Shown one piece after another: positions 11,027-30,508 of a stretch of DNA of 64,000 nt. Each line of letters opens with the position of its first letter. Within the stretch, counting starts at the first letter, position 1. The DNA is taken from NCBI GenBank assembly GCA_046598945.1, contig JBKJHT010000121.1, forward strand, positions 6,862 to 70,861, read 5' to 3'. The DNA comes from Burkholderiales bacterium (GTDB lineage: Bacteria > Pseudomonadota > Gammaproteobacteria > Burkholderiales > JALYOK01). A program made the translations under genes and the position numbers. Below the pieces are notes generated by a model. The model was not told the DNA's origin. It was given only the letters and a program-made list of their open reading frames with translations, and made no database searches.

Positions 11027-12169
11027 TCAGCCACGTTTGGTAAACCATTCGGCCAGCGTGGGCCCCAGAATTTTCTGTGCTTTGCCGCCGACAAAGGTCC
11101 CGATGTGGCCACCGGGCACTGCCAATTCGGTGTAATCTTTTGTGCCGAAATGATTCCCGACCCCCCGCGAGCACGACACTGGAACGACGGTGTCGCCGGT
11201 CGCATAGATGTTAAGAACCGGCATCGTAATCCGGCGCAGATCAACGGTACGATCGCCAAGCTGGAGTTGATTGCGGATCAGCTTGTTGTCCTGGTAGAGA
11301 TCTTTCAACCATTGTCGCAAGACCTCTCCCGGGTGATCAGGCCGGTCGGCGATCCAGCGCTCCATGCGCAGGAAGCTCAGCAGCTTCGCATCGTCATCGA
11401 GTACATCGATCAGGTCCGTGGTGTATTTCGTCATGTTACTTACCGGATTCATCATCAGGAACGCGAAGCCCACCAGGGCGCCTGGCGCTGAGCCGTAAAC
11501 ATTGACGAAGTCATCGACATCCTGAGCAGTCATCGAGCGAGCCCATCCGTTCATGTAACCTGCGCCCACCTGCGGTTCCTTCAGATCGCCGTGAAAGTCT
11601 AGCGGCGTGACGGTGAGCGCAAGGTTGCGCACCTTTTGCGGAAACAGCGCCGCGTAGCAGGTGGAAAACACGCCTCCCTGGCAAATCCCCATGAGATTGA
11701 TGCGTTCGGCCCGTGAGCGCTGGCGGATCACATCCACGCAACGATCAAGGTAGCCCGATACATAGTCATCGATCCCATGCCAACGCTGCGCGCGCCCCGG
11801 CAGGCCCCAGTCGATGAAGTACACGTCGAAGCCGCTGGCCAGTAACTTGCGCACCAGCGATCGATCGGCCTCAAGGTCAATCATCTGGAAGCGCCCAACC
11901 AGCGCGTAGGCGATAAGGATCGGCACAGGGTGCGGTTTGTCGACGGTTGGATGACAATGGTAGAGGCTCACCATGTCTTCGCGCCACACCTCGTCGCGTG
12001 GTACGGTCGCGATGGCCAGATCACCCTCCGAAAGCTGCCCAAGCTTCTTCAGCCCACGTGCGACCTTATCTTGTGCTGCCTTCAGCTCTTTCGTCGCGGA
12101 CTCCGGTGTGATCTCTAGGGCCGCCGCCGCGCGGCCGAGCAACTGCGCCTGCTCCAAGGGATTAATCAT
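11027..12169 (-). CDS. phaC: Class III PHA synthase subunit PhaC
   Basis: 380 aa (class III size). GICQGG catalytic Cys, FLRMERWIAD, GDTVVP Asp, GGHIG His. Confidence 0.92.
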   Translation of the reverse strand: MINPLEQAQLLGRAAAALEITPESATKELKAAQDKVARGLKKLGQLSEGDLAIATVPRDEVWREDMVSLYHCHPTVDKPHPVPILIAYALVGRFQMIDLEADRSLVRKLLASGFDVYFIDWGLPGRAQRWHGIDDYVSGYLDRCVDVIRQRSRAERINLMGICQGGVFSTCYAALFPQKVRNLALTVTPLDFHGDLKEPQVGAGYMNGWARSMTAQDVDDFVNVYGSAPGALVGFAFLMMNPVSNMTKYTTDLIDVLDDDAKLLSFLRMERWIADRPDHPGEVLRQWLKDLYQDNKLIRNQLQLGDRTVDLRRITMPVLNIYATGDTVVPVSCSRGVGNHFGTKDYTELAVPGGHIGTFVGGKAQKILGPTLAEWFTKRG

Positions 12170-12199
12170 CTTTGCTCGCCTTCTCCCATTCTTCGTTCC

Positions 12200-13249
12200 T
12201 CACCCTTGACGCGGGCTTGCCGCTTTTTTCTTAGTCGCCCTGGGTTTACGCGCAGGCGCGCGTTGGGCTTCGATAGGGCCGTCAGTATCGGCAATCCTAG
12301 TCGCGCGCAATTCACGCTTGAGCGCCTGAATCTCGCGAAACGCATCGTCAAGCTCACGCCGCGAGGTCATATCGAATTGCTCAGCGAAAACGGCCGCCAC
12401 CTGCTGCATCTTCTTGCGGTAGGTGAGATCGGCCCGAATAAGCGCGGCTGTCGCCGCTAACCCGCCCTCGGACTGCATCGTCTCGTGCACCGCCTGTTCG
12501 AGGTTGTTTGCCCACATCTTGATCAATGCCAGCACGCTGTCTATGCGCTCGCCAGCGTCGCCCTTGGTTGCAAGCGCCGATAACAGCCGTTGGAATCCTT
12601 GCAAGTATGCGTTCTGTAACAAGCTTGCATAGTGGGTGCGGGCGTCTTGCTGCGCGACGCCGGCGCTCATCACGTCGCGCCATGCCGCATTCGACTTGCG
12701 CGCAGGGCCCAATCCAACACCATCGCTGAAGGCGCCGTGGGTGCGGTCAAACGCAGCATCGATCTGCGCTGGACTCGTCCCCGTGAGACGGCTCGCCATA
12801 TCGACCCAGGCCTTGTTGATCGATTGAAACGGTGCTTGCGGCATGACCGTATCAATGGTCGGCATGGCGGACGACATCGCAGGCATGACAGCGGCTAGGT
12901 TCGGCATGAACGCCAGCCACGGCGCGAACATTGACTGGGCGTTTGCATCGGCGGGGTTGCCAGGCTTGGTGAACGAAAATGTGGCCAATTGCTTCCCCCA
13001 TTGCGCCACCAGATTTGGCATGCCGGTCTGAAGAGCTGGCACGAGTACTTGGAGCATGCTTTGCAGCGACTGCTGAGTGATCGATGCCGCCTTGGCGACC
13101 TGATCGACGGGGAATGGCAACTGGTCAAAGGCTGCGGGCGCCGCACCTGTGGACGATGAAATTCCCAACTGGCCGAACATCTGAGAGATCAGGCCAAGCC
13201 AGTGTTCATAAGCGGCTCGAGAACCCTGGTTCAAATCGGTCGCGATCAT
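12200..13249 (-). CDS. phaE: Class III PHA synthase subunit PhaE
   Basis: Helical 349-aa protein directly upstream of phaC, with a PhaE-box-like TSRRELDDAFREIQALKRELR and a basic tail. Confidence 0.85.
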   Translation of the reverse strand: MIATDLNQGSRAAYEHWLGLISQMFGQLGISSSTGAAPAAFDQLPFPVDQVAKAASITQQSLQSMLQVLVPALQTGMPNLVAQWGKQLATFSFTKPGNPADANAQSMFAPWLAFMPNLAAVMPAMSSAMPTIDTVMPQAPFQSINKAWVDMASRLTGTSPAQIDAAFDRTHGAFSDGVGLGPARKSNAAWRDVMSAGVAQQDARTHYASLLQNAYLQGFQRLLSALATKGDAGERIDSVLALIKMWANNLEQAVHETMQSEGGLAATAALIRADLTYRKKMQQVAAVFAEQFDMTSRRELDDAFREIQALKRELRATRIADTDGPIEAQRAPARKPRATKKKAASPRQG

Positions 13250-13691: not shown

Positions 13692-13720
13692 TTGACTACG
13701 CATTCTGAATTCGGTATTCT
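13692..13720 (+). promoter_or_regulatory. Sigma70-type promoter of the Rieske-PQQ operon with overlapping palindromic operator
   Basis: TTGACT-17 nt-TATTCT; operator GCATTCTGAATTCGGTATTC at 13700-13719. Confidence 0.75.
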
Positions 13721-13810: not shown

Positions 13811-14389
13811 ATGACAAACAATGAAGTAGAGAGTTGTGCGACCAACAAACCGATCAATCCAAAACGTCGTCGCGTGATCGAAATTGCGGTCGCAGGCGTG
13901 GCGGCAAGCTTCACCGGATTAAGTGTTGCCGAAACGGCGCCTGGCGCGGGTGATCGTCTCGTCCTTGATGACGCGGAAGGCGAGCCGGTGGCGCTACGCG
14001 CTGCGGACTTAAAGGTCGGCAAGCCGATCTTAGCGTTTGCATTTGATAAGGCAACCAAGGAAATGCGCAACGGCTCGCGCTTGCACAAGATCATGTTGAT
14101 CAAATTGGACGAAGCTGACCTTAACGCCGAAACCAAGGAGCGTGCGGCATCCGGCGTCATCGCGTTTTCGGCGATCTGCACCCACCAGTCCTGCGACGTG
14201 AAAACCTGGATCGCGAAGGAAAAGGCGTTGGTTTGCTTTTGTCACTCGACCAAGTTTTTACCGCTTGAGGCGGGCAAGGTCGAAAGCGGCCCCGCGACCC
14301 GTGCTTTGCCCACGATTCCGCTTAAATTAGAAGATGACGAACTGGTTCTCGCCGGTACTTTTAGCGCGCGGACGGGTCCGAGCGCCTAA
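13811..14389 (+). CDS. Exported Rieske [2Fe-2S] protein (QcrA/AioB-like)
   Basis: CTHQSC and CFCH boxes, GPA..ALP loop, twin-arginine-like KRRRVI followed by a hydrophobic stretch. Confidence 0.9.
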   Translation: MTNNEVESCATNKPINPKRRRVIEIAVAGVAASFTGLSVAETAPGAGDRLVLDDAEGEPVALRAADLKVGKPILAFAFDKATKEMRNGSRLHKIMLIKLDEADLNAETKERAASGVIAFSAICTHQSCDVKTWIAKEKALVCFCHSTKFLPLEAGKVESGPATRALPTIPLKLEDDELVLAGTFSARTGPSA

Positions 14390-14461
14390 CGACGGCTGAA
14401 CAAATTTTGTAGTATCGCGGCGTTACGGCGCCGCCCATTTCACAACCACGAGGAGCATTAA

Positions 14462-16186
14462 ATGAAATTTGTAATGAAAGCGCTGTGTGCCGCCGCTTTG
14501 ATCGTACCCGCGATCACGGCTACGGCATCGGACTACGCGCCGGTCACTGACCAGCGTCTCACCAACCCGGAAGCGGGCAACTGGCTGCAATACCGTGGTA
14601 ACTATGCGGGCTGGGGCTACAGCCCGCTGGAAAAGGTTAACGCCGGCAACGTTAACAAGCTGCAAACCGCCTGGTCGTTCTCGACCGGTGTGGCAGAAGG
14701 CCACCAGTCGCCTCCCATCGTTAACAATGGCTATATGTACATCACCACGCCGGGCTCGCAGTTGATCGCAATCGACGCCAGAACCGGTGGCGAGTTGTGG
14801 CGTTATAAGAAGGAAGTTTCGCCCGAGATGCTGCAATTGCATCCGACTAACCGTGGCGTCGCGCTCTATGGCGACAAGGTTTATGTCGCAACGGTTGATG
14901 CGCATTTGGTCGCCCTCGACGCCAAGACCGGCAAGGTCGCTTGGACCAAGCAAGTCGGCGATTGGAAAGCGCTGCAATACATCACCCTCGCGCCGTTGGC
15001 TGCTAAGGGCAAGATCATGGTCGGTTCCTCCGGCGGTGAAACCGGTGTGCGCGGCTTCGTCGCTGCTTACGACGCGCAAACCGGTAACGAAGCTTGGCGC
15101 ACCTTCATGACGGCCGGCCCCGGTGAACCCGGTGGCGACACTTGGCCTGGCGAGACCGCCAAAACCGGCGGCGCGTCGATCTGGATCACCGGTACTTACG
15201 ATCCGGCGACCAACCTCGCTTTCTGGGGTACGGGCAACCCGGCACCGTGGCCGATCCATCTGCGCAAGGGCGACAACCTCTATGCGACGTCCGTTGTTGC
15301 ACTCGATGTCGATACCGGCAAGCTCAAGGGCTATCACCAATACCACCATAACGACGCGTGGGACTGGGATGAAGTTTCCGCGCCTCTATTGATCGACACC
15401 ACCGTGAACGGCAAAGCGGTCAAAACCGCCGTCCACGCTGGCCGTAATGGATATCTGTGGGTGTTGGAGCGTACTGCCGACAAGATCAACTATCTTGCTT
15501 CCCATAAATACGTGTTGAACGACGTGTTTACCGGTATCGATGCCAAAACCGGCCGCCCGAGCTACGACGCTGCCAAGACACCCGGCACGGAAAAGCCGGT
15601 GAAATTCTGCCCGTCGCTTTGGGGTGGTAAGGATTGGGTGCCCGAGGCGTACAACCCGAAAACCAAGCTGTTCTACATCCCGGCCAATAACAACCTCTGC
15701 TCGGAATTGCCGGCTGCCGACAAAGAAGTACCGTACAAGAAGGGTGATCTGTTCATCGGCTATCCGATCGACGGCGTACTCGGCAGTTTGCGTTGGGCCG
15801 ATGCGAATGCGCCTAAGACCATTGGCGAAATCCAAGCTTGGGACATTTCCACCGGCAAACAAGTGTGGACACACAAGTTCCCGACTTTTATGTGGGGTCC
15901 GATCCTCACTACCGGCGGTAACCTCGTATTCGCCGGCGGCACCAACGATCGCAAATTCCGTGCATTCAACGCGACCAACGGCAAGCCGCTATGGGAAACC
16001 ACCATGCCTTCCGGCGTGACCGGTGTGCCGGTTTCCTACGAGGTGGATGGCGAACAGTACATCGCTGTTCAGGCCGGCTGGGGAGTTGATGCGCAGCGCA
16101 TGCAAAGCGGCGTTGACGCGCTACTCGGCAACAAGACGGTCGTTCCGCAAGGCGGCGTGCTTACGGTGTTCAAGTTAGCTAAGTAA
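14462..16186 (+). CDS. Periplasmic PQQ-dependent dehydrogenase, methanol/ethanol-family fold, atypical
   Basis: Sec signal; beta-propeller repeats (LDAKTGK..W); NRG, GGE, W, GNP, WDWD, GRNG; no CxxCH heme domain. Confidence 0.92.
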   Translation: MKFVMKALCAAALIVPAITATASDYAPVTDQRLTNPEAGNWLQYRGNYAGWGYSPLEKVNAGNVNKLQTAWSFSTGVAEGHQSPPIVNNGYMYITTPGSQLIAIDARTGGELWRYKKEVSPEMLQLHPTNRGVALYGDKVYVATVDAHLVALDAKTGKVAWTKQVGDWKALQYITLAPLAAKGKIMVGSSGGETGVRGFVAAYDAQTGNEAWRTFMTAGPGEPGGDTWPGETAKTGGASIWITGTYDPATNLAFWGTGNPAPWPIHLRKGDNLYATSVVALDVDTGKLKGYHQYHHNDAWDWDEVSAPLLIDTTVNGKAVKTAVHAGRNGYLWVLERTADKINYLASHKYVLNDVFTGIDAKTGRPSYDAAKTPGTEKPVKFCPSLWGGKDWVPEAYNPKTKLFYIPANNNLCSELPAADKEVPYKKGDLFIGYPIDGVLGSLRWADANAPKTIGEIQAWDISTGKQVWTHKFPTFMWGPILTTGGNLVFAGGTNDRKFRAFNATNGKPLWETTMPSGVTGVPVSYEVDGEQYIAVQAGWGVDAQRMQSGVDALLGNKTVVPQGGVLTVFKLAK

Positions 16187-16208
16187 TTTTTGTAGTTTAG
16201 TACGCTCT

Positions 16209-16259
16209 AATTTGCCCCCGACGCCGTAGAATTGGCGGTGTCCGGGGCGAATTGTTTTT
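16209..16259 (+). terminator. Probable intrinsic terminator
   Basis: GC-rich imperfect stem (TTGCCCC...GGGGCGAA) followed by TTGTTTTT, just after the PQQ gene. Confidence 0.55.
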
Positions 16260-16328
16260 GACGAATAGCTTTATTTCGCGCTAGTGCTAGCACGCATATC
16301 GCAACCATTGAATTGAGGAGAACCATTC

Positions 16329-19279: not shown

Positions 19280-19696
19280 CTAGGGTTTACTCGTTGTTAA
19301 AGAAGTGGCAAGCGCCGGGCAGCGCTTACCTTTTTCGCAACGCTCGACTTGCATGCGTCGAATAAAGCGATCACGGTTTGGCGCACTAAGGTCAACTTGA
19401 ATCGCCCAAACGCCAGGCATTTCCAGCTCTAATTGAGTGCGATACTCGCCGGGGTGATTGGTTGCGACGGCGACAACAGGCTTGATGCTGTGCGCCATAG
19501 GCATCGACGGCATATGAGCGGCTAGCGTCACTGTCGCGGTTTTAATCGGTTCTCCGTTTGCGTTTTGTAGGCGGGCGGTGCATTCAAGCGCTGGACCTTC
19601 GCCAATCGAAACGCATTGCAACTCAAGCTTTGGTCGCGCATCCGCGTGGGCCATGCCGATCAGCGCGATGCATAAAAAGAAAAATCGGACGTTCAT
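19280..19696 (-). CDS. Secreted YtkA/FixH-like Ig-fold protein
   Basis: Signal peptide; HMPSMPMAH motif; PGEY...LEMPGVW pattern; four Cys in the mature part. Confidence 0.75.
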   Translation of the reverse strand: MNVRFFFLCIALIGMAHADARPKLELQCVSIGEGPALECTARLQNANGEPIKTATVTLAAHMPSMPMAHSIKPVVAVATNHPGEYRTQLELEMPGVWAIQVDLSAPNRDRFIRRMQVERCEKGKRCPALATSLTTSKP

Positions 19697-20604
19697 CGCG
19701 ATGCTTGTGTTCGAGCGCGAAATAGCTGGGTGAATCGATGCACCAACGCTTCATCGAGCAATCCGCGCTGGCGCCAGCGCAAAAACAATGCGACCAGCAA
19801 ACCGAATACCACCATGCGCCAGCCCGCGAACACGCGCGTGGCTTCCAGCAATCCCAAATCGAACGCGACACCCAGCAACGGTCCTAAGCACGTACCGAGT
19901 CCGCCGATTAAGGCATAGCTGACGGCGTGCACGCCGAGCATCGGATCGAACAATGCGGGTTCGATGTAAGTCGCGCGATGTGCGTACAAACCACCACCCA
20001 AAGCGGCAAGCGCACCGGCCGTAGTCGCGGCGACCAAACGCAAGCGCGTAACGGCCAAGCCTTGCGTGGCGGCAAGTACGTCGTCGTGGCCGGTCATGCG
20101 CAGTGCGACGCCCAATCTGCGCCGCTCCAGCCATGCAAATGCGAGCAACACGATTGCCAGCACAGCGGCGATTAATACCAAGTATTGTGACGGTGAAACA
20201 TCGTTTTCCAGCAACCAGCGGATATCGCGAAAGCCATCCAGCCCCGCCGGCCCAACCGGGCCATCGCTCGTTTCCTGCTGGAAGTACCAGGCTTGTAAAC
20301 CCACGCGTACCATCTCACCAAACGCGAACGTCGCGACCGCGTAGTGCAACCCGGAAAGAGGCATGGTGGGCAAGGCCAACAAGCACGACGCGAGCGCGCC
20401 GACCAGCATTCCCGCGAATAATGCGATGGAAAGCGGCCAGTGGGCCATGGCCGAAGCGATACCGGACACGTAGGCGCCTATGCCGAAGAATGCTTGCTGG
20501 CCAAACGAGATTCGACCCACCAGTAGCAATAAATACGCGGACAACGCGAGTAGCGCCATAATGCCCATGTCGCTGGCGAGCCCGACGGCGTGTTCAGCGG
20601 ACAA
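19693..20604 (-). CDS. Liv-type ABC permease (LivM-like), second copy
   Basis: GRISFGQQAFFGIGAY, AVATFAFGEMVR, GGLGT..GP. Confidence 0.9.
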   Translation of the reverse strand: MSAEHAVGLASDMGIMALLALSAYLLLLVGRISFGQQAFFGIGAYVSGIASAMAHWPLSIALFAGMLVGALASCLLALPTMPLSGLHYAVATFAFGEMVRVGLQAWYFQQETSDGPVGPAGLDGFRDIRWLLENDVSPSQYLVLIAAVLAIVLLAFAWLERRRLGVALRMTGHDDVLAATQGLAVTRLRLVAATTAGALAALGGGLYAHRATYIEPALFDPMLGVHAVSYALIGGLGTCLGPLLGVAFDLGLLEATRVFAGWRMVVFGLLVALFLRWRQRGLLDEALVHRFTQLFRARTQASR

Positions 20605-21523
20605 GCGTCGCTTCCTTGTTAAACGTCACCGAACGCCACGGCGCTACCAGCACGAGGAACAGCAACGCGTAGGTTGCGAACTCACGGCCCGCCGCGCCAA
20701 ACAGCGCTTGCGCGTGGGCTTCAACCACGCCAAGCAACAAACCGCCACACAACACGCCGCTGATAGAACCTAATCCGCCGAGCATGGCCGCGACGAGTCC
20801 TTTGACCAGCACCCACATACCGAACATCGGTGTAACTTGACCTGCCAAACTCAGCACAGCAAATGCCGCGATGCCGGACAGCGCGCACGCGAACGCGAAA
20901 GCGAGACGTTGCACGCGCCGCACCGAGATGCCGGCAAGCTGCGCAGCGGTGGGCTGATCCGCCGCCGCGCGCCACGCCAATCCACCACGGCTGACACGCA
21001 GCCAGCGCGCTAGGGCGAACGTGAGCACGATCGCCAGCAACGCAAGTACCAGCCGGTCCGTACGTAACACTAACGGTCCCAGATTCCATTCTTGCGACAC
21101 GGCTAACGATGGAAATGGATTTAAGTGGCGCGGTAACAGATTTACGGCGAGTTGCTCGAGTTGCATCCAGATAGCAAAGCTCGATGCCAGCGCGACGACT
21201 TCGCGGCCATCTCGTCCCGCGACCGGTGGACCGCCACGAACAGCATCTTGACCCGATTCGGATGTGTTAGAGAAACACAGCCATTCGACGTAGAGGCCTA
21301 TCAAGGTCGCCATGCCGATGACAACGATCGCGATGAAAAATATAGGGAGCTCATAACGCTGGTGCAACCATGCGCCGACGTAGGCAGCCAACATTGCGCC
21401 CGCGCCGTAGGCAAGATTCAAGCGCTTGAGGGTACCGAATGTGAGTGAGAGGCCGAGGCCGATCAGCCCGTAGGTTGCACCATCGAGCAGGCCATCCAAC
21501 GTGCGTTGTAGGAGCTCGATCAA
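20594..21523 (-). CDS. Liv-type ABC permease (LivH-like), second copy
   Basis: YGLIGLGLSLTFG..RLNLAYG, LGGLGSISG. Confidence 0.9.
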   Translation of the reverse strand: MIELLQRTLDGLLDGATYGLIGLGLSLTFGTLKRLNLAYGAGAMLAAYVGAWLHQRYELPIFFIAIVVIGMATLIGLYVEWLCFSNTSESGQDAVRGGPPVAGRDGREVVALASSFAIWMQLEQLAVNLLPRHLNPFPSLAVSQEWNLGPLVLRTDRLVLALLAIVLTFALARWLRVSRGGLAWRAAADQPTAAQLAGISVRRVQRLAFAFACALSGIAAFAVLSLAGQVTPMFGMWVLVKGLVAAMLGGLGSISGVLCGGLLLGVVEAHAQALFGAAGREFATYALLFLVLVAPWRSVTFNKEATLVR

Positions 21524-21533
21524 AACTCTCTCT

Positions 21534-21680
21534 TAGGGAAGCTCTGAATAAGTTCGAGTTCTAAATGAGACAAGGCGCGAACAAAAAATAGCGACGCAGC
21601 ATATGCGTGATATATAAGGAGATATTTTTTTTGAGCAACGCAGGATCATGACGAAATCGGACTTATTCAGAGCTTCCCTA
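21534..21680. mobile_element. 147-bp MITE-like palindromic element
   Basis: Perfect 20-bp terminal inverted repeats TAGGGAAGCTCTGAATAAGT / ACTTATTCAGAGCTTCCCTA with TA at both ends. Confidence 0.85.
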
Positions 21681-21682
21681 GC

Positions 21683-22399
21683 TCAGGCGGCTCTACGCTG
21701 GCCTAGGTAGGCCCTTTGAATCACGTCGTCCTCCGCGAGCTCGCCCGGCGTTCCGGAGAAACTCACGCGGCCTTGCTCCATAAGGTAGAAATGTTGCGCG
21801 ACTTGAAGCGCCATATGCGCGTTCTGTTCGACGAGAAAAATGCTCACGCCTTCAGCGTGCAATTGGCGAATGATTGAGAAAATTTCCGCGACGACGAGCG
21901 GTGCAAGGCCAACGGATGGCTCATCCATCAGCAGCAATCGGGGGCGTGACATCAGTGCGCGCGCCACGGCCAACATTTGTTGCTCACCACCGGACAACGT
22001 GCCGGCAAGCTGGCCAACACGATCGCGCAATTGCGGGAAGCGCGTCAACATACGATCTACATCATCGCGAATCGCGGCGCGGTCGCGGCGGCGGAATGCG
22101 CCGGCCATCAGATTTTCTTGAACGGTTAACGCAGGGAATACCAAGCGATTTTCCGGTACGAGCGCAAGTCCGCGCGAAACGATCTCCGCCGGACTTAGGC
22201 CCATCAACTCTTCGCCCTCAAATTTCACCGAACCACGCTGTGGGCGTAAGATGCCGGAAAGCGTCATCATCAGCGTCGTCTTGCCCGCACCATTCGGGCC
22301 GAGCAAACAGGTTACTTCGCCGGCTTTTGCCAAGAGCGAAACGCCTTTGAGAGCTTCGATTTTTCCGTAAGCGGTTGCGAGGTCTTTAATGTCGAGCAT
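21683..22399 (-). CDS. ABC ATPase (LivF-like)
   Basis: GPNGAGKTT, LSGGEQQML, LLMDEP; start moved to ATG 22399. Confidence 0.93.
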   Translation of the reverse strand: MLDIKDLATAYGKIEALKGVSLLAKAGEVTCLLGPNGAGKTTLMMTLSGILRPQRGSVKFEGEELMGLSPAEIVSRGLALVPENRLVFPALTVQENLMAGAFRRRDRAAIRDDVDRMLTRFPQLRDRVGQLAGTLSGGEQQMLAVARALMSRPRLLLMDEPSVGLAPLVVAEIFSIIRQLHAEGVSIFLVEQNAHMALQVAQHFYLMEQGRVSFSGTPGELAEDDVIQRAYLGQRRAA

Positions 22400-22415
22400 G
22401 GCTGTTCTCCGAAAT

Positions 22416-23177
22416 TTAGGCCGCTTTTGCCGCAGGCGTGTCGCTGCCCAAATAAGCCGTGCGTACTTGTGGATCGTCTTGCACTTGAGCCGGGGTACCC
22501 TCAGCAATCTTACGGCCGAAGTTCAACACCGCAACACGATCACACACGCCCATCACCAATTCCATGTGATGTTCGATTAGCAAAATCGTGCGGCCATCGT
22601 CGCGTAATTTTCGAATGCGATTATCGAGATCGTCAATTTCTTCCACGTTCATGCCGGCCGCGGGCTCGTCGAGCAATAGCAATTCCGCACCGGACGCCGC
22701 AGCCCGCGCCAACTCCAAGCGGCGTTGTTCGCCGAACGCGAGATTGCCGGCGAGCATGTCGCGCTTGTTCGCCAAGCTGCTAAATTCGAGCAGCGCTTCA
22801 GCTTGTTCACGCGCGGCCTTGGCGCCCGAGAGCCAACGCTCACGAATTCCCGCCCATCCGGTCGCACGAACAACGCGCGCGGCCCACACGTTTTGCCAGA
22901 CGGTGAGATGGCCGAATAGGCGGATATTTTGAAACGTGCGCGCGATGCCCAATTCACAGCGTTGGTGTTGTGCGAGATCGCCTAGGTCTTGGCCTTTGAA
23001 GTGGATCGTTCCCGAGGTCGGTTTAAACAGTCCGGCGATAAGATTGACCGTCGTGCTTTTGCCCGAACCGTTGGGACCAATCAGTCCGAGAATTTCACCT
23101 TGGCGGACTTGTAGATCGAGTTGATCGACCGCTTTTACGCCACCGAAATGACGGCTGACATTTTTGAGTTCAAGCAT
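22416..23177 (-). CDS. ABC ATPase (LivG-like)
   Basis: GPNGSGKST, RTFQNIRLF, LLLDEPAAG, IEHHM; start moved to ATG 23177. Confidence 0.93.
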   Translation of the reverse strand: MLELKNVSRHFGGVKAVDQLDLQVRQGEILGLIGPNGSGKSTTVNLIAGLFKPTSGTIHFKGQDLGDLAQHQRCELGIARTFQNIRLFGHLTVWQNVWAARVVRATGWAGIRERWLSGAKAAREQAEALLEFSSLANKRDMLAGNLAFGEQRRLELARAAASGAELLLLDEPAAGMNVEEIDDLDNRIRKLRDDGRTILLIEHHMELVMGVCDRVAVLNFGRKIAEGTPAQVQDDPQVRTAYLGSDTPAAKAA

Positions 23178-24099
23178 GATTGGCCTGCGCTTGAGTCTTA
23201 ATGGAATCGGTGGACGTTGAACGCGAACGCCACGGTAAGCGTAACGCACCGCTCAACACACCACTCGGGCGAATGAGCATCACGAGCAAAATCAACGCGC
23301 CGAACAACAGACTGCGCCAATCGCCGAGAAAACGTAGACCTTCGATGAGAAACCCTTGAATGAAAATCACCGCGATCACCGTGCCGGCGATGCTGGCAAG
23401 TCCACCGAGAATGGGGTACGCGATGGCGAATGTCGCGAGCAAAATCGTAAAATTGCCGTGCTCAATGTGAGTTGCGTAGTGGGCGAATAGTGCGCCTGCT
23501 AACCCAGCGATTGCACCACCGATGCCGAACGCGGACACTTTTGCGACGGTAAGATTAATCCCGACGCTTTGCGCAGCGACTTCGTCCTCGCCCACGGCGC
23601 GCCACAGCGTGCCGATGCGGGTGCGATCTAGCCTCCAGAGCAGCAGCATCACTAACGCGACTAGCACCCAAATGAAAGCAGCGACTTGCCACACGCTCCA
23701 GCCGTGACTCGGAAAGTAGCGAATTCCGCCGAAACCGAGCCCGCCATTTGGGCCAATTGGGCCTTGCGACGTTTGGACTTGCCAGGTGAGGTTGAAGAAC
23801 ACCAAGCGCACAATTTCCGCAAATGCCGTCGTCGCGACGACCAGCATCAATCCTTTCACGCGCAGCGCAGGAAAGCCTACCGCGATGGCGACTGCCGCCG
23901 CGATCAGCGAGGCGGCCGGGAGTGCCAAAAGTAACGGCCAACCGAACATTGCGGTCAGCATGCCTGCGGAATACGCGCCGATTGCAAAGAAGCCGCCTTG
24001 CGCCAAGCTCACTTGGCCGGTGTGCAACACGCACCACGCAGACAACCCCAACAGCGTGTGAATGCCGATGACTTGAGCGAGACTCAAATAGAAGTCCAT
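23170..24099 (-). CDS. Liv-type ABC permease (LivM-like)
   Basis: TGQVSLAQGGFFAIGAY, VATTAFAEIVR, RAVGEDEVAA. Confidence 0.92.
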   Translation of the reverse strand: MDFYLSLAQVIGIHTLLGLSAWCVLHTGQVSLAQGGFFAIGAYSAGMLTAMFGWPLLLALPAASLIAAAVAIAVGFPALRVKGLMLVVATTAFAEIVRLVFFNLTWQVQTSQGPIGPNGGLGFGGIRYFPSHGWSVWQVAAFIWVLVALVMLLLWRLDRTRIGTLWRAVGEDEVAAQSVGINLTVAKVSAFGIGGAIAGLAGALFAHYATHIEHGNFTILLATFAIAYPILGGLASIAGTVIAVIFIQGFLIEGLRFLGDWRSLLFGALILLVMLIRPSGVLSGALRLPWRSRSTSTDSIKTQAQANHA

Positions 24100-24111
24100 G
24101 GCGATCTCCCG

Positions 24112-24996
24112 TTAGTCCCGTCCGCCGGGCGCGCTGAACAAGCCGCCCGGCCTAAATACCAGGAACACAAAGAGCAGCAGCATTACATAGATATCGCGCT
24201 CGCTCACACCGCGCAAAAACTGAAATAAATTTTCGGCCCCGCCGACGATCAATCCCGCGACGATCGCGCCGGGTATGCTACCGAGTCCACCAATTACCGT
24301 AACCACCAAGCCTTTCACAGTCAACGGCAACGACAATAGCGGGGATAACACGCCAATCGCCGCGCCAGCCATTGCGCCAGCGGTGCCGCCGAGCAGGCCG
24401 GCGATGACGAAGGTGCTGGCATTGGTGCCATCGACACTCATGCCGCACAGGCGTGCCGCGATGGGTTGTTGCGCGACAGCACGAGTCGCGAGGCCGAGGC
24501 GAGTGCGCTTTAATAGCAGCGTGAGTCCCACCATCGCCAAACAGCCAAGGGCGAAAACAAACAACAAATCGCCACGAATCATGAACGGACCGATTTCGAA
24601 ATTCGCGCCGGAGAATAGCGCCGGATAATTGAGTGGCATGCCATCGGTCGCGTGGACGATGGTTTCCTCCAAGAGCAACAACATGCCCACCGTCGACATC
24701 AACGTAGCAAGCGGTTTATCGAGTGGGACGAAACGAAAGCAAATGAAATAAATCAACGCGCCCAACCCGCCGCCCATGAGTGTTGCGACTAAATAAACGA
24801 CGGGCGACGGTACAATCTTTACGACGATTAAACTCAAATACGCGGCGCCAATGGAAGCAGCCGCGTAAGAAAGATTGATTTTGTGCATCACGCCGAAGAT
24901 CAGCGTAAAGCCGATACCGATTAATGCGTAAATGGTACCGAACATCACCCCGTCGAAGACCGACTGCATGAGGTCCAACAGATCCAACATTGACAT
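24112..24996 (-). CDS. Liv-type ABC permease (LivH-like)
   Basis: YALIGIGFTLIFGV...INL, IGGLGSIPGA, RPGGLF; exact start uncertain. Confidence 0.92.
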   Translation of the reverse strand: MSMLDLLDLMQSVFDGVMFGTIYALIGIGFTLIFGVMHKINLSYAAASIGAAYLSLIVVKIVPSPVVYLVATLMGGGLGALIYFICFRFVPLDKPLATLMSTVGMLLLLEETIVHATDGMPLNYPALFSGANFEIGPFMIRGDLLFVFALGCLAMVGLTLLLKRTRLGLATRAVAQQPIAARLCGMSVDGTNASTFVIAGLLGGTAGAMAGAAIGVLSPLLSLPLTVKGLVVTVIGGLGSIPGAIVAGLIVGGAENLFQFLRGVSERDIYVMLLLFVFLVFRPGGLFSAPGGRD

Positions 24997-25071
24997 GACG
25001 GAGTGCGTCCTTGAAGTACGCTGCTTTAGTCGCAACCTCGCGCGAAATTTTCCGCGCGAGGTACGAGGTCG

Positions 25072-26289
25072 TTATTGGCCCGCAGGCGTATGCGCCACGA
25101 CCCAAGCGCCACTTTGTGCTTGCACGAAGAGGAACGGTTTGATCGCTTCGCGGTCTTTTGTGCGGCCAACTTTGCCGAGCAAGCCTTGGGTTTCTGTCAT
25201 ATTCGCCAAAGCTTCACGAATTTTTTGACGGTCGGCTTGAATGGTTTCCGGACGCGCCATGATCTTGTTTTTCTCGATCAAATTCTTCAGCGTGAAAATG
25301 TTTTCCCAGGCCGCAGCGTTGTGCAAATCCATGCTGGCATTCTGCGCGGCCAAGGCTTCGGCAGCTTTTTTAGCTTCCGGCGTCACCGGCGCGAAGCTGG
25401 TTGGAATCAAGATCCCTTCAGCCTGTTGCGCGCAGCCGTTCAAGGTTTCCATGCTTGAAGAGCTGGTTAGACCGACCAACATTTTCGGCTTCACGCCTTG
25501 GCGCTGCATTTCTTTCAGCACGCCGCAGGTGGTGAAGGGGTGTGCAGAAATTGCGACCACATCAGCGTTGGCACGCTTCATTTCGCGCACTTGCGTAGAA
25601 AAGCTGGTATCGGCGAGCAGCCACTCGCTTTGACCTAAGACTTCGAATCCACCTTTAGTCGCGATGTCTTTCATGGAATTAAACGTCGCATTGCTGTGAG
25701 CGAAGTCCTTCTCCACGCCGCCCCAGAATGTCTTAACTTGCGGGTGGCTAGTTTTGATCCAGTCGAACATGCTCTTATACATTGTCGCTTCGCTCGGCAC
25801 ATTGCGGAATGCCCACTGCGAAATCGATGCGAGGCCACCTTTCGCCGCCACGTCGGTGTAGAGCGGGAACTGCAACCCGGAATCGCTAGCATCGCCTACT
25901 TTCTTTTGCAGAATGCCGAATACCGGCTCGGCAACGCTGCTGCAGGTTGGGCCGACTGCGACGATGCCATCTTCAGACGCAGCGATGCGACGCAGCACGT
26001 TGATGCCCTCTTCCACGTTGCAGCGATCGTCCAAGTATTCGATGACGAGTTTCGCTTTTGCACCGTCACCCATTGTGACGCCACCGGCCTTGTTGATCTG
26101 ATCCGCGGCAGCCTTCATTGCCGCTTCGCTGTTCAAGCCGAATATACGAACCACGCCGCTTTTAGCGCCGAAGCCATAAATTTTGACGGTGCGCTCTTGT
26201 GCAACTGCTGAAACGCTGGCCACCGATACGGTTAGCGCGCTAGCGAGAACCGTGAGGGCAATACGAGAACGATTGTAAAACTGAACCAT
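25072..26289 (-). CDS. Liv-type ABC substrate-binding protein
   Basis: Signal peptide; INKAGG, DDRC, VGPTCSS, AFRN pattern; GGAGG RBS. Confidence 0.9.
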   Translation of the reverse strand: MVQFYNRSRIALTVLASALTVSVASVSAVAQERTVKIYGFGAKSGVVRIFGLNSEAAMKAAADQINKAGGVTMGDGAKAKLVIEYLDDRCNVEEGINVLRRIAASEDGIVAVGPTCSSVAEPVFGILQKKVGDASDSGLQFPLYTDVAAKGGLASISQWAFRNVPSEATMYKSMFDWIKTSHPQVKTFWGGVEKDFAHSNATFNSMKDIATKGGFEVLGQSEWLLADTSFSTQVREMKRANADVVAISAHPFTTCGVLKEMQRQGVKPKMLVGLTSSSSMETLNGCAQQAEGILIPTSFAPVTPEAKKAAEALAAQNASMDLHNAAAWENIFTLKNLIEKNKIMARPETIQADRQKIREALANMTETQGLLGKVGRTKDREAIKPFLFVQAQSGAWVVAHTPAGQ

Positions 26290-26397: not shown

Positions 26398-28137
26398 CTA
26401 GCGATGCCCAGCGCTCTGACGCCAGTTGCGTTCTGCTTCGTCCCAAACGCCGAGCGCCTGAAGGTCAGGCACCCAAGCTAAGCCGGTTTTTCCGTCAGAC
26501 GATTTCGCTTCCGGTGTAACGACTACATCTAGCAAAGAGGGACGGTTTGCCAGGGCACGTTCGATGGCGCCGGGCAGGTCTTCAGTTCTTTCTACGCGTT
26601 CCGCATGCATGCCGAAGGCGCGCGCCATCGCGGCATAATCGGAGAACTGCAAACGCGTGCCGACTACTTTGCCGTGGGTGTCGGTCTGATCATGGACTTC
26701 AATTTGCCACGCGCCATTGTTCGCGACTACGATCAACACTGAAGCCTGATGTCGCACGGCAGTGTCGATCTCCATGGCGTTGAAGCCGAACGCGCCGTCG
26801 CCGGTCGCGACGACCACTTGCCGATCGGGATAAGCGAGGCTCGCGGCGATACCGAACGGCGTGCCAATGCCAATGCACCCAAGGGAACCTGGATCAAGAT
26901 AGGTAGACGCGGGCAATCCGACGCGCGCGAAGCTCAAGAAATCGCCGCCGTCCGCAATGATCACTGCGTCAGGCGCGAGTTGTTTTTGCAACTCGCCGAG
27001 CAAACGATTGGGATGAATGCGTCCATCGCTTCCTGGTGCAGCCGTTTGCATGGCTTGGCGCAGTTTGATTGCGCGCTCTTCGTGCTTTTGTCGAGTGGTG
27101 GTCAACCAATTGCGCTCGGCATTGGCTGCGCGATTACCTGCAACGTGAACCATCGCGCTAAGCGTAGCTGCCGGTTGCGCGAAGATTTCCACTTCGCCTC
27201 TTCGATTGTCGCGCAAGTCGCCAGGCGCATCGCCAATGCGGATGAAGCGCGCAGCGCCGAATATCGCAGGCGAGCCGAAGGCCAATTGGAAATCGAGACG
27301 GCGACCGAGCGTAACAATCACATCGGCTTCGGTCATCACGGTGCCGCGCATCGCCGCGACGACGGACGGATGCGAGTCCGGCACGAGGCCTTTGCTTTCG
27401 CCGGTATCAAGATACAGCGCGCCGCATTTGTCGAGCAACGCTGTCAATTCGGGGCCCGCGCCACGCGCGCCGCGGCCGCTGATGATCAACGGCCGCCTCG
27501 CCGACCAAAGCAGTTCGACTGCGGCCTCAATATCGTTGGGATCGGGACGCAAAACCGGCTTTGCCTTCGGGCGGAAATGTTCCTCCAATTGCAGCGGGCG
27601 CGGCACTTCGGCACGCAACGTGTCCACCGGAAAATCTAAATACACCGGGCCAGGATCGCCACCTTGTCCGAAGGCGCGGGAAACGGCTTCATCGAGTTCT
27701 TGCAACACTAAAGAAGGTTCACGCACCGTCCGGGCATAACGCGTGAGCGAGCGTACTAAGTCCGTATGGACGATGTCCTGCAACGCGCCGCGATTTTCTT
27801 GCGGGCGCGGCGGCAGGCCCGATAACACCAGCACCGATGCGCGTGCGATGTGGGCATTGGCGATGCCGGTCATAGCATTCGTAACCCCAGGACCGGCGGT
27901 TACGAGCGCCACGCCGAGTTGCCCGGTGAGTTCGCTGTGGGCGTGGGCCATGTACACCGCTGCACGCTCATCGCGCACGTCTATGATACGGATGCCTTCG
28001 GCATCGCAACGCATAAAGATCGGCATGATGTGGCCGCCGCACAGCGTAAAGATGCGATCCACGCCGCGTGCTTTAAGAAATCGGGCGATGACACCCGCGG
28101 CGCTATCGGCGGTGATCGGCGGAGGTGTAATGCTCAT
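26398..28137 (-). CDS. ThDP-dependent enzyme, 2-hydroxyacyl-CoA lyase-like (actinobacterial 2-hydroxyisobutyryl-CoA lyase type)
   Basis: DVRDE catalytic Glu, TAGPG, GALQD, GDGAFG...NN ThDP motif followed by AWQIE..DQ, and C-terminal lid GLAWVPDLQALGVWDEAE. Confidence 0.8.
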   Translation of the reverse strand: MSITPPPITADSAAGVIARFLKARGVDRIFTLCGGHIMPIFMRCDAEGIRIIDVRDERAAVYMAHAHSELTGQLGVALVTAGPGVTNAMTGIANAHIARASVLVLSGLPPRPQENRGALQDIVHTDLVRSLTRYARTVREPSLVLQELDEAVSRAFGQGGDPGPVYLDFPVDTLRAEVPRPLQLEEHFRPKAKPVLRPDPNDIEAAVELLWSARRPLIISGRGARGAGPELTALLDKCGALYLDTGESKGLVPDSHPSVVAAMRGTVMTEADVIVTLGRRLDFQLAFGSPAIFGAARFIRIGDAPGDLRDNRRGEVEIFAQPAATLSAMVHVAGNRAANAERNWLTTTRQKHEERAIKLRQAMQTAAPGSDGRIHPNRLLGELQKQLAPDAVIIADGGDFLSFARVGLPASTYLDPGSLGCIGIGTPFGIAASLAYPDRQVVVATGDGAFGFNAMEIDTAVRHQASVLIVVANNGAWQIEVHDQTDTHGKVVGTRLQFSDYAAMARAFGMHAERVERTEDLPGAIERALANRPSLLDVVVTPEAKSSDGKTGLAWVPDLQALGVWDEAERNWRQSAGHR

Positions 28138-29780
28138 GATCGTTCCTTGGCGGGTTTACGCGTTTGTTTTTTGAGCGCACGAAGATCGATCACACCAGGT
28201 TCCTTAAGTGGATCGGTTCCCGGCGGAAAGATGCTAACCTTTTGAATCTTTTGCGAGCTGGTTGTCGGTAGTTTGTCGACGAACAGAAAATACGCAGGCG
28301 CTTTAAAGTAGGCGAGGCGCTCGCAGCAGTACTCAAATAGCTCGCGTGCGAAATGTTCACCGGCTTGATCCGAGGCTTTCGGAATCACGAGCGCCATGAC
28401 CTCTTCCTCGCGAATTTCATCCGGTACGGCGATTACTGCGACTTGTTTAACTTTGTCGTGCGAGGTGATGCATTCTTCGATCTCGGCGGCGGCGATGTTT
28501 TCTCCGGCGCGGCGGATGATGTTTTTGCTGCGGTCCATGAAGAAATACATACCACTTTCATCGCGCTTGACGACATCCCCGGTGTGGAACCAGCCGTTGC
28601 GCCAGGCTTCGTCGGTCGCCTTTTGGTTTTTCAAATAGCCGCTGAAAAACCCTTCGCGCGGCGTTTCGGCGCTGTGGCGGATAACCAGTTCTCCGCCCTC
28701 GCCGACGGGAACTTCGTTGTCGTTGGCATCGACGGCACGTAACTCGGCGCCGTGCACTGATCGTCCGAGTGCGCGGGTGTGGATCATTCGTGGTTCTTCG
28801 TGTGCGGTGGTCATGCGGCCGGTTTCGGTCATGGCCCACATTTCAACTAACGGGAAACGGTAACGGCGCTCGAATTCTTCGTGTAGGCTCGGCTCGCAGC
28901 CGGCGCAAAGTGCAAACTTGACTTTGTGTGTGCGCTCCAATGGCGAATTAGGCAACTTCAGCAGGATCGCCGGAATGACGCCTTGAAACTGAATCGCGGT
29001 GACGCGGCAGTTCACAATATCATCCCAGAATGTGCTGGCGTGAAAGCGATCGGGAAACACCAAGCATCCGCCGGCGAGCAACATGGCGGGCAGCGAAATG
29101 GAAAAGGCATTTGCATGATGCAGCGGCAGCGGATTGTAAAGCCGCTCTTCGCCGTCCTTGAGCGCTAGCGTATGGCCGCGCGAAAGAAACCACTGACCCC
29201 AGTAGTGAAAATACTCGTTGGTCAGCACGCAACCTTTTGGCCGTCCGGTCGTGCCCGAGGTATAGAGCAGACCCGCTTCGGTTTTGCCGTCGGGGACTTC
29301 GTTCTTCGCCGGGACCAGCGGTCTGGGCAATGCGGCGGATAAATCGTCGAACGGCAATACCGGTATCGGCTTCGCAAGCGCGTTTGAGGCGGCTTGCAAA
29401 TCGGCGAGGCGCTCCTTGATGCCAAAAGCAACACAACACTCGGAATGTTCGAGCAGATAAACGATTTCGTCGTGGCGATAGTCCGGGTTGACGCTGACGG
29501 TGCTGCATCCCAGCGCATTCAACGCGAAGTGGTGAAACACGAACTCGGGCCGCTGCTCGAACAAAATCGCGACACGGTGTCCCGGCCCATAGCCGGCATC
29601 GCGATAGAAGCGAATTCGCTCTTGCACGGCTGAGAAAGTTTCGTTCCAGGTATATTCCTTACCTTCTGGATAATAAGCGCGACCGGCCATAGGCGGGACC
29701 GCATAGGCGGGGCGATCGCCATACTTCGCGACGCTACGTTGCAACGATTGATAAAGTGTGCCGAGGGCTAGGGCGTCCAT
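28134..29780 (-). CDS. Acyl-CoA ligase (CaiC-like AMP-binding protein)
   Basis: YTSGTTGRPKG, WAMTE, WFHTGD, DRSKNIIRRAGENI, KIQK; overlaps the ThDP gene by 4 nt (ATGA). Confidence 0.92.
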   Translation of the reverse strand: MDALALGTLYQSLQRSVAKYGDRPAYAVPPMAGRAYYPEGKEYTWNETFSAVQERIRFYRDAGYGPGHRVAILFEQRPEFVFHHFALNALGCSTVSVNPDYRHDEIVYLLEHSECCVAFGIKERLADLQAASNALAKPIPVLPFDDLSAALPRPLVPAKNEVPDGKTEAGLLYTSGTTGRPKGCVLTNEYFHYWGQWFLSRGHTLALKDGEERLYNPLPLHHANAFSISLPAMLLAGGCLVFPDRFHASTFWDDIVNCRVTAIQFQGVIPAILLKLPNSPLERTHKVKFALCAGCEPSLHEEFERRYRFPLVEMWAMTETGRMTTAHEEPRMIHTRALGRSVHGAELRAVDANDNEVPVGEGGELVIRHSAETPREGFFSGYLKNQKATDEAWRNGWFHTGDVVKRDESGMYFFMDRSKNIIRRAGENIAAAEIEECITSHDKVKQVAVIAVPDEIREEEVMALVIPKASDQAGEHFARELFEYCCERLAYFKAPAYFLFVDKLPTTSSQKIQKVSIFPPGTDPLKEPGVIDLRALKKQTRKPAKERS

Positions 29781-29797
29781 AGTTTCAAGTCGAGTAG

Positions 29798-30508
29798 TTA
29801 AGCCGTGCGATTCACGCGCCGTACGGTTTTCGCGGGAAGTTGTTTGTTCTGATTGAGATGTTGTTCCAAGCGGCCGGCCAATACATCGGATGCATGCGCG
29901 ATATGATGCCGGGCAATGCGCTCGGCTTTGGCGGCCTCGCCGGAGATGATGGCGTTTAGGATTGCTTCGTGCTGATCCCAGATTTCACCCGGCGTTTCTT
30001 CGCGCAACACCGCGGCCATCACTCGCCGCAAATAGTTCCAGTGCGGCGTGCAAATCTCGCCAATCAGCGGATTTCCGGAAAGACGGTAAAGAAAATAATG
30101 AAATTCCATATCAGCGATAGTCATCTGCGCGATGGAGCGATTTTTCACAGCCGTCCGGCCGCGGGCGAGATAAGGAGGGCCTTCTTTTTTGGCAACGTTC
30201 GCAGCAACCTCGGCAACCTTGGCGCTGGCGAGTCCGTCGAGCATTGCTCGCACTTCGAGAAGATTACGCACATGGGCGGGATCGAGTGGCGCGACCATCA
30301 AGCCGCGCCCCGGGGCATCGCGCAATAACCCACGGCTACGTAATAAGAGTAGCGCCTGTTGCACCGGCTGACGCGATACGCCCAGCGTTTCGGCTAGTTC
30401 TTCTTGAATTAAACGGCTGTCAAGCCCAAGCCGTCCTTCGATGATTTCCGTAAGGATCGATTCGTAAACTTGGTCGACTAACGTGGGTTGAGGGGTGAGC
30501 GTGCGCAA
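29798..30508 (-). CDS. GntR/FadR-family (FCD) transcriptional regulator
   Basis: LIQEELAETLGVSRQPVQQAL HTH; FCD motifs DMEFH, SGNP, HEAIL. Confidence 0.93.
   Translation of the reverse strand: MRTLTPQPTLVDQVYESILTEIIEGRLGLDSRLIQEELAETLGVSRQPVQQALLLLRSRGLLRDAPGRGLMVAPLDPAHVRNLLEVRAMLDGLASAKVAEVAANVAKKEGPPYLARGRTAVKNRSIAQMTIADMEFHYFLYRLSGNPLIGEICTPHWNYLRRVMAAVLREETPGEIWDQHEAILNAIISGEAAKAERIARHHIAHASDVLAGRLEQHLNQNKQLPAKTVRRVNRTA

Follow-up and report, generated by a model that had tools for sequence, protein, structure and literature searches.

Type I alcohol dehydrogenases dependent on pyrroloquinoline quinone (PQQ) are described as passing their electrons to a dedicated cytochrome c. In the PedH/PedE-PedF, ExaA-ExaB, ExaF, XoxF-XoxG and MxaFI-MxaG systems, an eight-bladed propeller with ligands for PQQ and a metal is accompanied by an adjoining gene for a dedicated partner, and the canonical PedH, ExaF, XoxF and MxaF systems combine a vicinal Cys-Cys pair with a cytochrome c gene. 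We analysed a stretch of 64,000 nucleotides from a Burkholderiales bacterium (assembly GCA_046598945.1, contig JBKJHT010000121.1, positions 6,862 to 70,861; hereafter the window) which encodes an enzyme that shares the propeller, the ligands and the adjoining partner gene with these systems but has Q125-L126 at the place of the Cys-Cys pair and a Rieske [2Fe-2S] protein gene as its partner, with no cytochrome c gene nearby. The two open reading frames (ORFs) are on the same strand with the Rieske gene upstream (Table 1), as a first-pass annotation of the sequence had stated. That annotation also suggested a non-canonical exit of electrons from PQQ to the [2Fe-2S] cluster, which is supported by the two-way gene linkage and the predicted complex described below. 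We estimate a probability of roughly 75% that the two proteins work together in the periplasm to oxidise an alcohol, that the Rieske protein replaces cytochrome c as the enzyme's dedicated acceptor of electrons, and that a cytochrome c acting in trans is the next carrier.

The pairing of the two genes was found to be conserved far beyond chance. A scan of species-representative genomes gave 442 Rieske relatives, and in 78 of the best 80 loci, which were examined, a PQQ gene is located directly downstream of the Rieske gene; in the other two the contig ends 27-28 bp past the Rieske match. The linkage also holds in the opposite direction. When the enzyme was used as the query, a Rieske gene was observed within 1.5 kb flanks at 12/12 loci of its clade (the window's own included) and at 0/8 other PQQ loci. 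Profiles of the two proteins matched the same 6 of 401 genomes at adjacent places, in one draw from the phylum where four of the six belong to one genus, and among 14 genomes of the family six carry both genes (seven pairs) and eight carry neither. On plasmids, the Rieske gene is adjacent in all nine records with a clade enzyme (at least 469 bits), five of which (Alteromonas and four Paracoccus) have the gene order swapped, and none of the other 29 PQQ plasmid records is among the 24 Rieske records. Distant members were used for a metagenome scan, where 16 of 19 family loci have the enzyme, two are cut by contig ends and one lacks it, while 61 generic Rieske loci include none with a PQQ gene. 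The pair is also present in cultured strains of Methyloversatilis, Aromatoleum, Zoogloea, Leptothrix and Paracoccus. The Rieske and PQQ dehydrogenase genes are thus a real, conserved two-gene module present in more than 100 related loci.

The relatedness of these loci has to be considered in reading such counts. In a quick tree of 56 enzyme rows (midpoint root; Shimodaira-Hasegawa-like approximate likelihood ratio test, SH-aLRT, without bootstrap), the 40 Rieske-linked enzymes fall together on one side of a branch with an SH-aLRT value of 99. Because the paired enzymes are one clade and kin are not independent, the pairing may have a single origin. It could then be argued, also from the existence of related Rieske genes without a PQQ gene, that the two genes merely travel together without any direct link in function, or that the propeller does not function as a PQQ enzyme. 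We regard this as highly improbable since the genes are still adjacent where enzyme identity has fallen to 45%, in two named phyla and where their order is swapped, while the other neighbours all change; all PQQ-binding positions of the propeller are kept and the complex model passes its controls. The Rieske tree was poorly resolved (8 label changes, 19 of 41 branches open) and for this reason no origin or order of events was drawn from it.

The enzyme passes TIGR03075, the methanol/ethanol family of PQQ-dependent dehydrogenases, with 563.8 bits against a cut-off of 480.05. Membership of the acido-empty-quinoprotein group A was rejected (TIGR04528, 398.4 against a cut-off of 650). Its nearest solved relative is the eight-bladed propeller PedH (6ZCV; E 1e-108, 38% identity, template modelling (TM) score of the model 0.86), and the model has TM scores of 0.83-0.87 to PedH, ExaA, XoxF and MxaF. 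The PQQ- and metal-binding positions R131, T175, S190-G-G-E193, W241, N259, D301, R328 and W540 are invariant in 63/63 paired enzymes. In the alignment to PedH, E193, N259, D301 and a second aspartate, D303, are retained, so that the lanthanide-type DxD of PedH is also present in this enzyme. Of 109 loci, 102 have Asp at the second position and the other seven, the Adh6-like members, have Ala. The conserved residues suggest that the enzyme would bind PQQ together with a lanthanide at D303 and oxidise an alcohol to an aldehyde. The difference from the relatives is located in the loop where Q125-L126-H127 replaces Cys-Cys-Asp of PedH and ADH-II; where the loop could be read (111 paired loci), a vicinal Cys-Cys was seen only once. 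In ExaA the Cys-Cys ring has been linked to electron transfer to cytochrome c550 (PMC12997753). The loss of Cys-Cys, the lanthanide-type DxD and the subfamily identity of the enzyme described further below all go beyond the first-pass annotation.

The Rieske protein matches PF00355 over the cut-off. Its N-terminus has the twin-arginine (Tat) sequence KRRRVIEI at residues 18-25 followed by a hydrophobic stretch, and the boxes CTHQSC and CFCHSTKF within a Rieske fold contain both disulfide cysteines, in agreement with the first-pass annotation. A short Cys-x-Cys stretch was noticed ahead of the twin-Arg motif in many family members (window 13811-13840). Identification as PetA (TIGR01416, 30.4 against 97.4), QcrA (NF050121, 78.7 against 275) or AioB (TIGR02694, 41.9 against 95.65 bits) was rejected as all scores are below the cut-offs, and the neighbour is a PQQ gene and not aioA. 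The best match in both sequence and fold is the Thermus thermophilus Rieske protein, a subunit of quinol-cytochrome c reductase (1NYK, 3FOU), with 1NYK being the closest structure (E 4e-28, root-mean-square deviation 1.5 Å, TM 0.91 by target, 35% identity). Its boxes bear the disulfide as in our protein, but the S-R-L motif reads E-A-K and box II has Gly and Tyr in place of the Ser/Thr and Phe of this family, and the gene in the window is not beside cytochrome b. The S-R-L motif is a mark of the family. It was absent from the inspected Thermus-type proteins and from the paired protein of Deinococcus; R90 is invariant in 63 paired Rieske proteins and Arg occupies this position in 119 of 151 aligned rows.

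A Rieske family profile matched 139 clusters at 50% identity (E up to 1e-30), and the best 150 representatives were examined, 143 of them with readable boxes. The disulfide pair and the cluster ligands were intact in all 143, and the RR pair was present in 113 of 122 full-length representatives. The first-pass annotation had pointed to Thr and Phe at the positions where bc1 Rieske proteins have Ser and Tyr. Thr147 and Phe149 are indeed placed so, but they are not distinctive: the Ser/Thr position is Ser in 135 and Thr in 3 of the 143, the Phe/Tyr position is Phe in 110 and Tyr in 33, and the genome's own bc1 Rieske protein (PetA, beside cytochromes b and c1) reads CPCHGSKF. Thr was commoner, at 36, among the 120 nearest homologs. 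A family-wide tuning signature is therefore rejected and, since the family has mostly Ser and the own bc1 protein has Phe, we see these residues as a small local tuning and a minor point. In AioB the change from Ser to Thr costs about 20 mV, and AioB of A. faecalis likewise has Thr with the disulfide, at +130/160 mV (PMC3758308).

Cytochromes c were looked for in several ways. No CxxCH was found in 258 window ORFs of at least 70 residues, which include both proteins of the pair, and no cytochrome b or molybdoenzyme was observed among the longest ORFs near the pair. The earlier statement that none of these three is nearby is thus borne out over the window for CxxCH, and for the other two among those longest ORFs. 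The genome (99.8% complete, with pqqE and tatC over the cut-off) has nine type I PQQ dehydrogenase genes (contigs listed: C24, C83, C97, C171, C200 and C246). Downstream of each of the other eight, a CxxCH gene follows within about 1 kb, and the one in the window alone has a Rieske gene. Homology to these eight partner cytochromes was used for a search of 117 paired loci (redundant ones included; 85 with at least 1 kb downstream), and a cytochrome c gene within 1.5 kb on the same strand was found in none of them, compared with 4 of 8 unpaired loci. Twelve loci have a CxxCH ORF. Six such ORFs were scanned, the other six being short; the scanned ones include one cytochrome c located 5 kb upstream on the opposite strand (L080) and one PufC (L044).

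Binding between the two proteins is supported by a complex model of enzyme residues 23-574 and Rieske residues 42-192 with the 2Fe-2S cluster and Ca, where each chain was given as a 63-row alignment. The model scored 0.81, against 0.00 for the best of three controls. Of 157 solved complexes 116 reach the score mark, as do 2 of 215 mismatched pairs; these counts are only rough here. Between runs at least 95% of the contacts are the same, and the partner has a predicted local distance difference test value of at least 91. In the predicted interface, enzyme residues 121-128, 169, 426-440 and 542-549 meet Rieske residues 89-91, 125-129, 143-146, 161 and 189-192. The best contacts are L124, Q125 and L126 of the enzyme with residues 126-128 and 144 of the Rieske protein, and enzyme residues 542/545/546 with H145, so that the cluster loops of His125 and His145 are placed on the loop that replaces Cys-Cys. 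Searches of the PDB gave no PQQ-Rieske complex that could have served the model as a template, the matches listed being from single families only.

We propose the following sequence of events for this module. The Rieske protein would be exported folded by the Tat system and the enzyme by Sec, as judged from their signals. The enzyme, with PQQ and a lanthanide, would then turn an alcohol into an aldehyde, and the tip formed by His125 and His145 is predicted to sit on loop 121-128, the site of the Cys-Cys ring in relatives. Since the predicted docking position of the Rieske protein is above the PQQ site, this protein likely takes the electrons of the enzyme where relatives use cytochrome c. Reduced PQQ (PQQH2), with a potential of about +90 mV (PMC11697101), may give its electrons singly to the [2Fe-2S] cluster, which by analogy with AioB (cluster potentials of about +130 to +225 mV; PMC3758308) probably lies at about +130 to +230 mV. 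From the cluster they might move to a cytochrome c encoded at another locus, as from AioB to cytochrome c552, and then to an oxidase. AioAB, where a Tat-exported Rieske protein relays the electrons of a periplasmic oxidase to cytochrome c, was named as a relay comparison by the first-pass annotation; it is useful as a working analogy, although 1NYK and not AioB is the closest solved relative. AioB is only about 20-24% identical to the Rieske protein, and its donor is a Mo/[3Fe-4S] subunit where PQQ would be the donor here. The true aioB of this genome is located elsewhere. An aioB-like Rieske gene (C212:18722-20104) is followed by short aioA-like pieces only and then by ars genes, apparently a broken arsenite oxidase.

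The Rieske protein might instead not be the oxidant of PQQH2. It could aid maturation or activation, as thought for XoxJ/MxaJ-type partners, sense redox state or feed electrons in, with a cytochrome c encoded elsewhere as the direct acceptor. With 18 PF00034 matches in the genome, a cytochrome acting in trans is conceivable; partners that are dedicated but do not accept electrons are found in ped and xox clusters (PMC12997753), and the binding prediction is silent on the direction of electron flow. This possibility seems unlikely to us as the cluster ligands and disulfide are kept throughout the readable representatives, the modelled tip of His ligands on the electron-exit loop would block another acceptor, and the genome's other eight enzymes keep their own cytochrome gene. 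Less likely again is that the Tat signal stays on the Rieske protein and anchors it in the membrane, where it would connect the enzyme with a cytochrome b or a bc1 complex encoded elsewhere. Electrons would then pass to the quinone pool or cytochrome c1 and not to a soluble cytochrome. The closest structures are bc-complex Rieske proteins of Thermus and actinobacteria, the genome has a complete petABC, and the signal lacks a strict AxA and is about as hydrophobic as that of the own PetA (1.83 against 1.93). Across the family, however, AxA is found 16-34 residues after RR in 49 of 59 paired signals, whose median hydrophobicity of 1.46 is lower, while five Thermus-like sequences lack a strict AxA. 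No cytochrome b homolog was seen at the 19 family metagenome loci, compared with 21 of the 61 generic Rieske loci, and petABC already has its own Rieske gene.

For the acceptor role of the Rieske protein, a number of observations weigh on the other side. PQQ was left out of the complex model, and a PQQ-to-cluster distance is absent from the output. Conservation is not enriched at the enzyme interface (0.75 against a chain average of 0.78), and the Rieske interface without the ligands has 0.68 against an average of 0.64, in both cases with surface exposure uncontrolled. Two of the eight cytochrome-linked paralogs also lack Cys-Cys (C246:35115-36839 and C171:20437-22060, the latter being split over two frames), and a plasmid enzyme of Deinococcus aetherius (L191:5010-7304) keeps Cys-Cys and DxD while having a Rieske neighbour. 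Because of these enzymes, the loss of Cys-Cys can be said neither to need nor to force the Rieske swap. The Deinococcus enzyme branches first within the paired clade and the pair may represent a natural intermediate. Related Rieske genes were also found in other settings. The 1NYK-like genes of Thermus/Meiothermus plasmids (L192:4854-6032, L194:4848-6397) are beside TauE/SafE with neither PQQ nor cytochrome b genes, and the one uncut metagenome locus without the enzyme, a 4-kb contig (L119), has a family Rieske gene and then a cytochrome c gene but no PQQ gene. On this contig the Rieske gene overlaps the gene of the monoheme cytochrome c (L119:1108-2093), and at L119:3344-3988 another Rieske-like gene was noticed, whose second box is degenerate. 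The arrangement may hint at the next acceptor or at an unpaired use. A weak search for Rieske-PQQ fusions returned nine weak matches from 7994 long candidates, and a PQQ domain was absent from all nine. Lastly, the genome has no AldA over the cut-off, which bears on the substrate discussed below.

The enzyme is a member of PQQ-ADH type 6a. Its clade, which contains the named type 6a members Adh4 and Adh6 of Methylobacterium aquaticum 22A and a type 6a enzyme of Methyloversatilis, has 39 rows and an SH-aLRT value of 100. The identity of the M. aquaticum genes was fixed by the adh4 and adh6 upstream primers in Table S1 of PMC7356819; these primers have exact matches about 1 kb upstream of two plasmid genes whose products are 62% and 50% identical to the window enzyme. 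Both genes have a Rieske gene upstream. The type 6a name follows a 2014 classification as used in PMC7356819, PMC8561711 and PMC6028718, and in the first of these Adh4 and Adh6 are filed as type 6a and the family is called uncharacterised. The word 'Rieske' is absent from the available text of PMC7356819, PMC8561711 and bioRxiv 10.64898/2026.07.10.737718. The pairing is also undescribed in the accessible parts of the literature searched (including PMC5023235, bioRxiv 10.1101/2023.03.06.530795, PMC11102522, PMC6028718 and PMC4358397), and the paper that defined type 6a (Keltjens 2014) and Huang 2019 (ISME J) are outside that search and could mention the neighbour. The clade is thus a known one without characterised members, and its electron acceptor is likely of a new kind. 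The pairing supplies the partner so far missing from enzymes that the literature calls uncharacterised, and it can be tested in M. aquaticum 22A, for which single-gene mutants exist.

In broader terms, we think it probable that type 6a is a widespread, mostly lanthanide-type family with a direct exit from PQQ to [2Fe-2S] and a heme-free first step. A bc Rieske protein of the Thermus type would have been recruited and the Cys-Cys ring would then have become the Gln-Leu-His docking loop. If so, the direct route from PQQ to a Rieske protein would be a new wiring in a much-studied family and, to our knowledge, only arsenite oxidase would precede it as a periplasmic oxidase served by a Rieske protein of the bc type. 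The pair also offers a natural test of the role of the vicinal disulfide and would widen lanthanide-dependent metabolism beyond methanol and ethanol. The family may possibly be a periplasmic entry to a 1,2-diol, 2-hydroxyacid and 2-hydroxyacyl-CoA lyase route.

The weakest step in this proposal is the substrate, which we only tentatively suggest to be a small 1,2-diol or hydroxy-alcohol because genes for an AldA-type aldehyde dehydrogenase and a 2-hydroxyacyl-CoA lyase are the commonest neighbours. In the 80 related loci, AldA-like genes were observed in 38 (37 of the 56 with room downstream), the lyase in 32, an acyl-CoA synthetase in 35 and GntR homologs in 33, with one representative each of the AldA-like protein, the lyase and the synthetase being named by NCBIfam. 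A route from 1,2-diol to 2-hydroxyaldehyde, 2-hydroxyacid, CoA ester and finally the lyase would fit these neighbours. In the window a 2-hydroxyacyl-CoA lyase gene is located 10 kb off (NF058623, 826.7 against a cut-off of 600), in a block at 26401-30508 (-) with a GntR regulator and an acyl-CoA ligase, and as GntR and lyase homologs flank the pair in so many loci, this block may share its pathway. The window synthetase is only 28% like the usual neighbour synthetase. A branched-chain-type ATP-binding cassette (ABC) transporter with four permease genes (19696-26289, -) follows the block.

Table 1. Coordinates of the paired genes and their associated features in the window.
Feature	Position	Strand	Basis
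Rieske [2Fe-2S] protein gene, 192 aa (P0001), Thermus-1NYK-like fold	13811..14389	+	profile, alignment, structure match
Twin-arginine motif R19-R20-R21 of the predicted Tat signal	13865..13873	+	
S89-R90-L91 motif, in the predicted interface	14075..14083	+	alignment and complex model
Rieske box I, C123-T-H125-Q-S-C128	14177..14194	+	
Rieske box II, C142-F-C144-H145-S-T147-K-F149	14234..14257	+	
72-bp spacer with GAGGAG ribosome-binding site at 14450-14455	14390..14461	+	
Type I PQQ dehydrogenase gene, 574 aa (P0002), PQQ-ADH type 6a, N-terminal Sec-like signal, no heme domain	14462..16186	+	
Loop 121-128; Q125-L126 at the place of the vicinal Cys-Cys of PedH/ADH-II; chief Rieske contact in the model	14822..14845	+	
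E193, metal-ligand position	15038..15040	+	alignment to PedH
N259, metal-ligand position	15236..15238	+	alignment to PedH
D301-W-D303, catalytic Asp and second, lanthanide-type Asp	15362..15370	+	alignment to PedH
Hairpin (16208-16254) followed by a T run	16208..16260	+	-32.6 kcal/mol, z -4.33, 0/200 shuffles as stable

The hairpin and T run downstream of the enzyme gene are likely to be a terminator which closes the two-gene unit, and no stable hairpin was found in the 72-bp spacer (z 0.20). One sigma-70-like site was seen upstream (13692-13720), where 1.8 are expected by chance. Expression data gave small shares in two runs and one 151-base contig in one RNA run, which speaks neither for nor against expression of the pair. 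The longest ORFs around the pair encode PhaE/PhaC, a glutathione S-transferase, a flavodoxin-fold protein, a short-chain dehydrogenase/reductase and an ABC transporter. The phaE-phaC genes of a class III polyhydroxyalkanoate synthase (PF09712; TIGR01836 over the cut-off) are located at 11027-13249 (-), divergent from the Rieske gene, and are not a common neighbour at related Rieske-PQQ loci. In the swapped-order loci of Alteromonas and Paracoccus, a gene of 146-153 residues without a Pfam match was observed after the Rieske gene (L193:5475-5936, L198:7423-7869, L200:7424-7864), and a third component encoded by it is possible. In addition, genes with a MauG/cytochrome c peroxidase domain were noticed nearby, downstream of the pair, in three loci (L110, L111 and L193).

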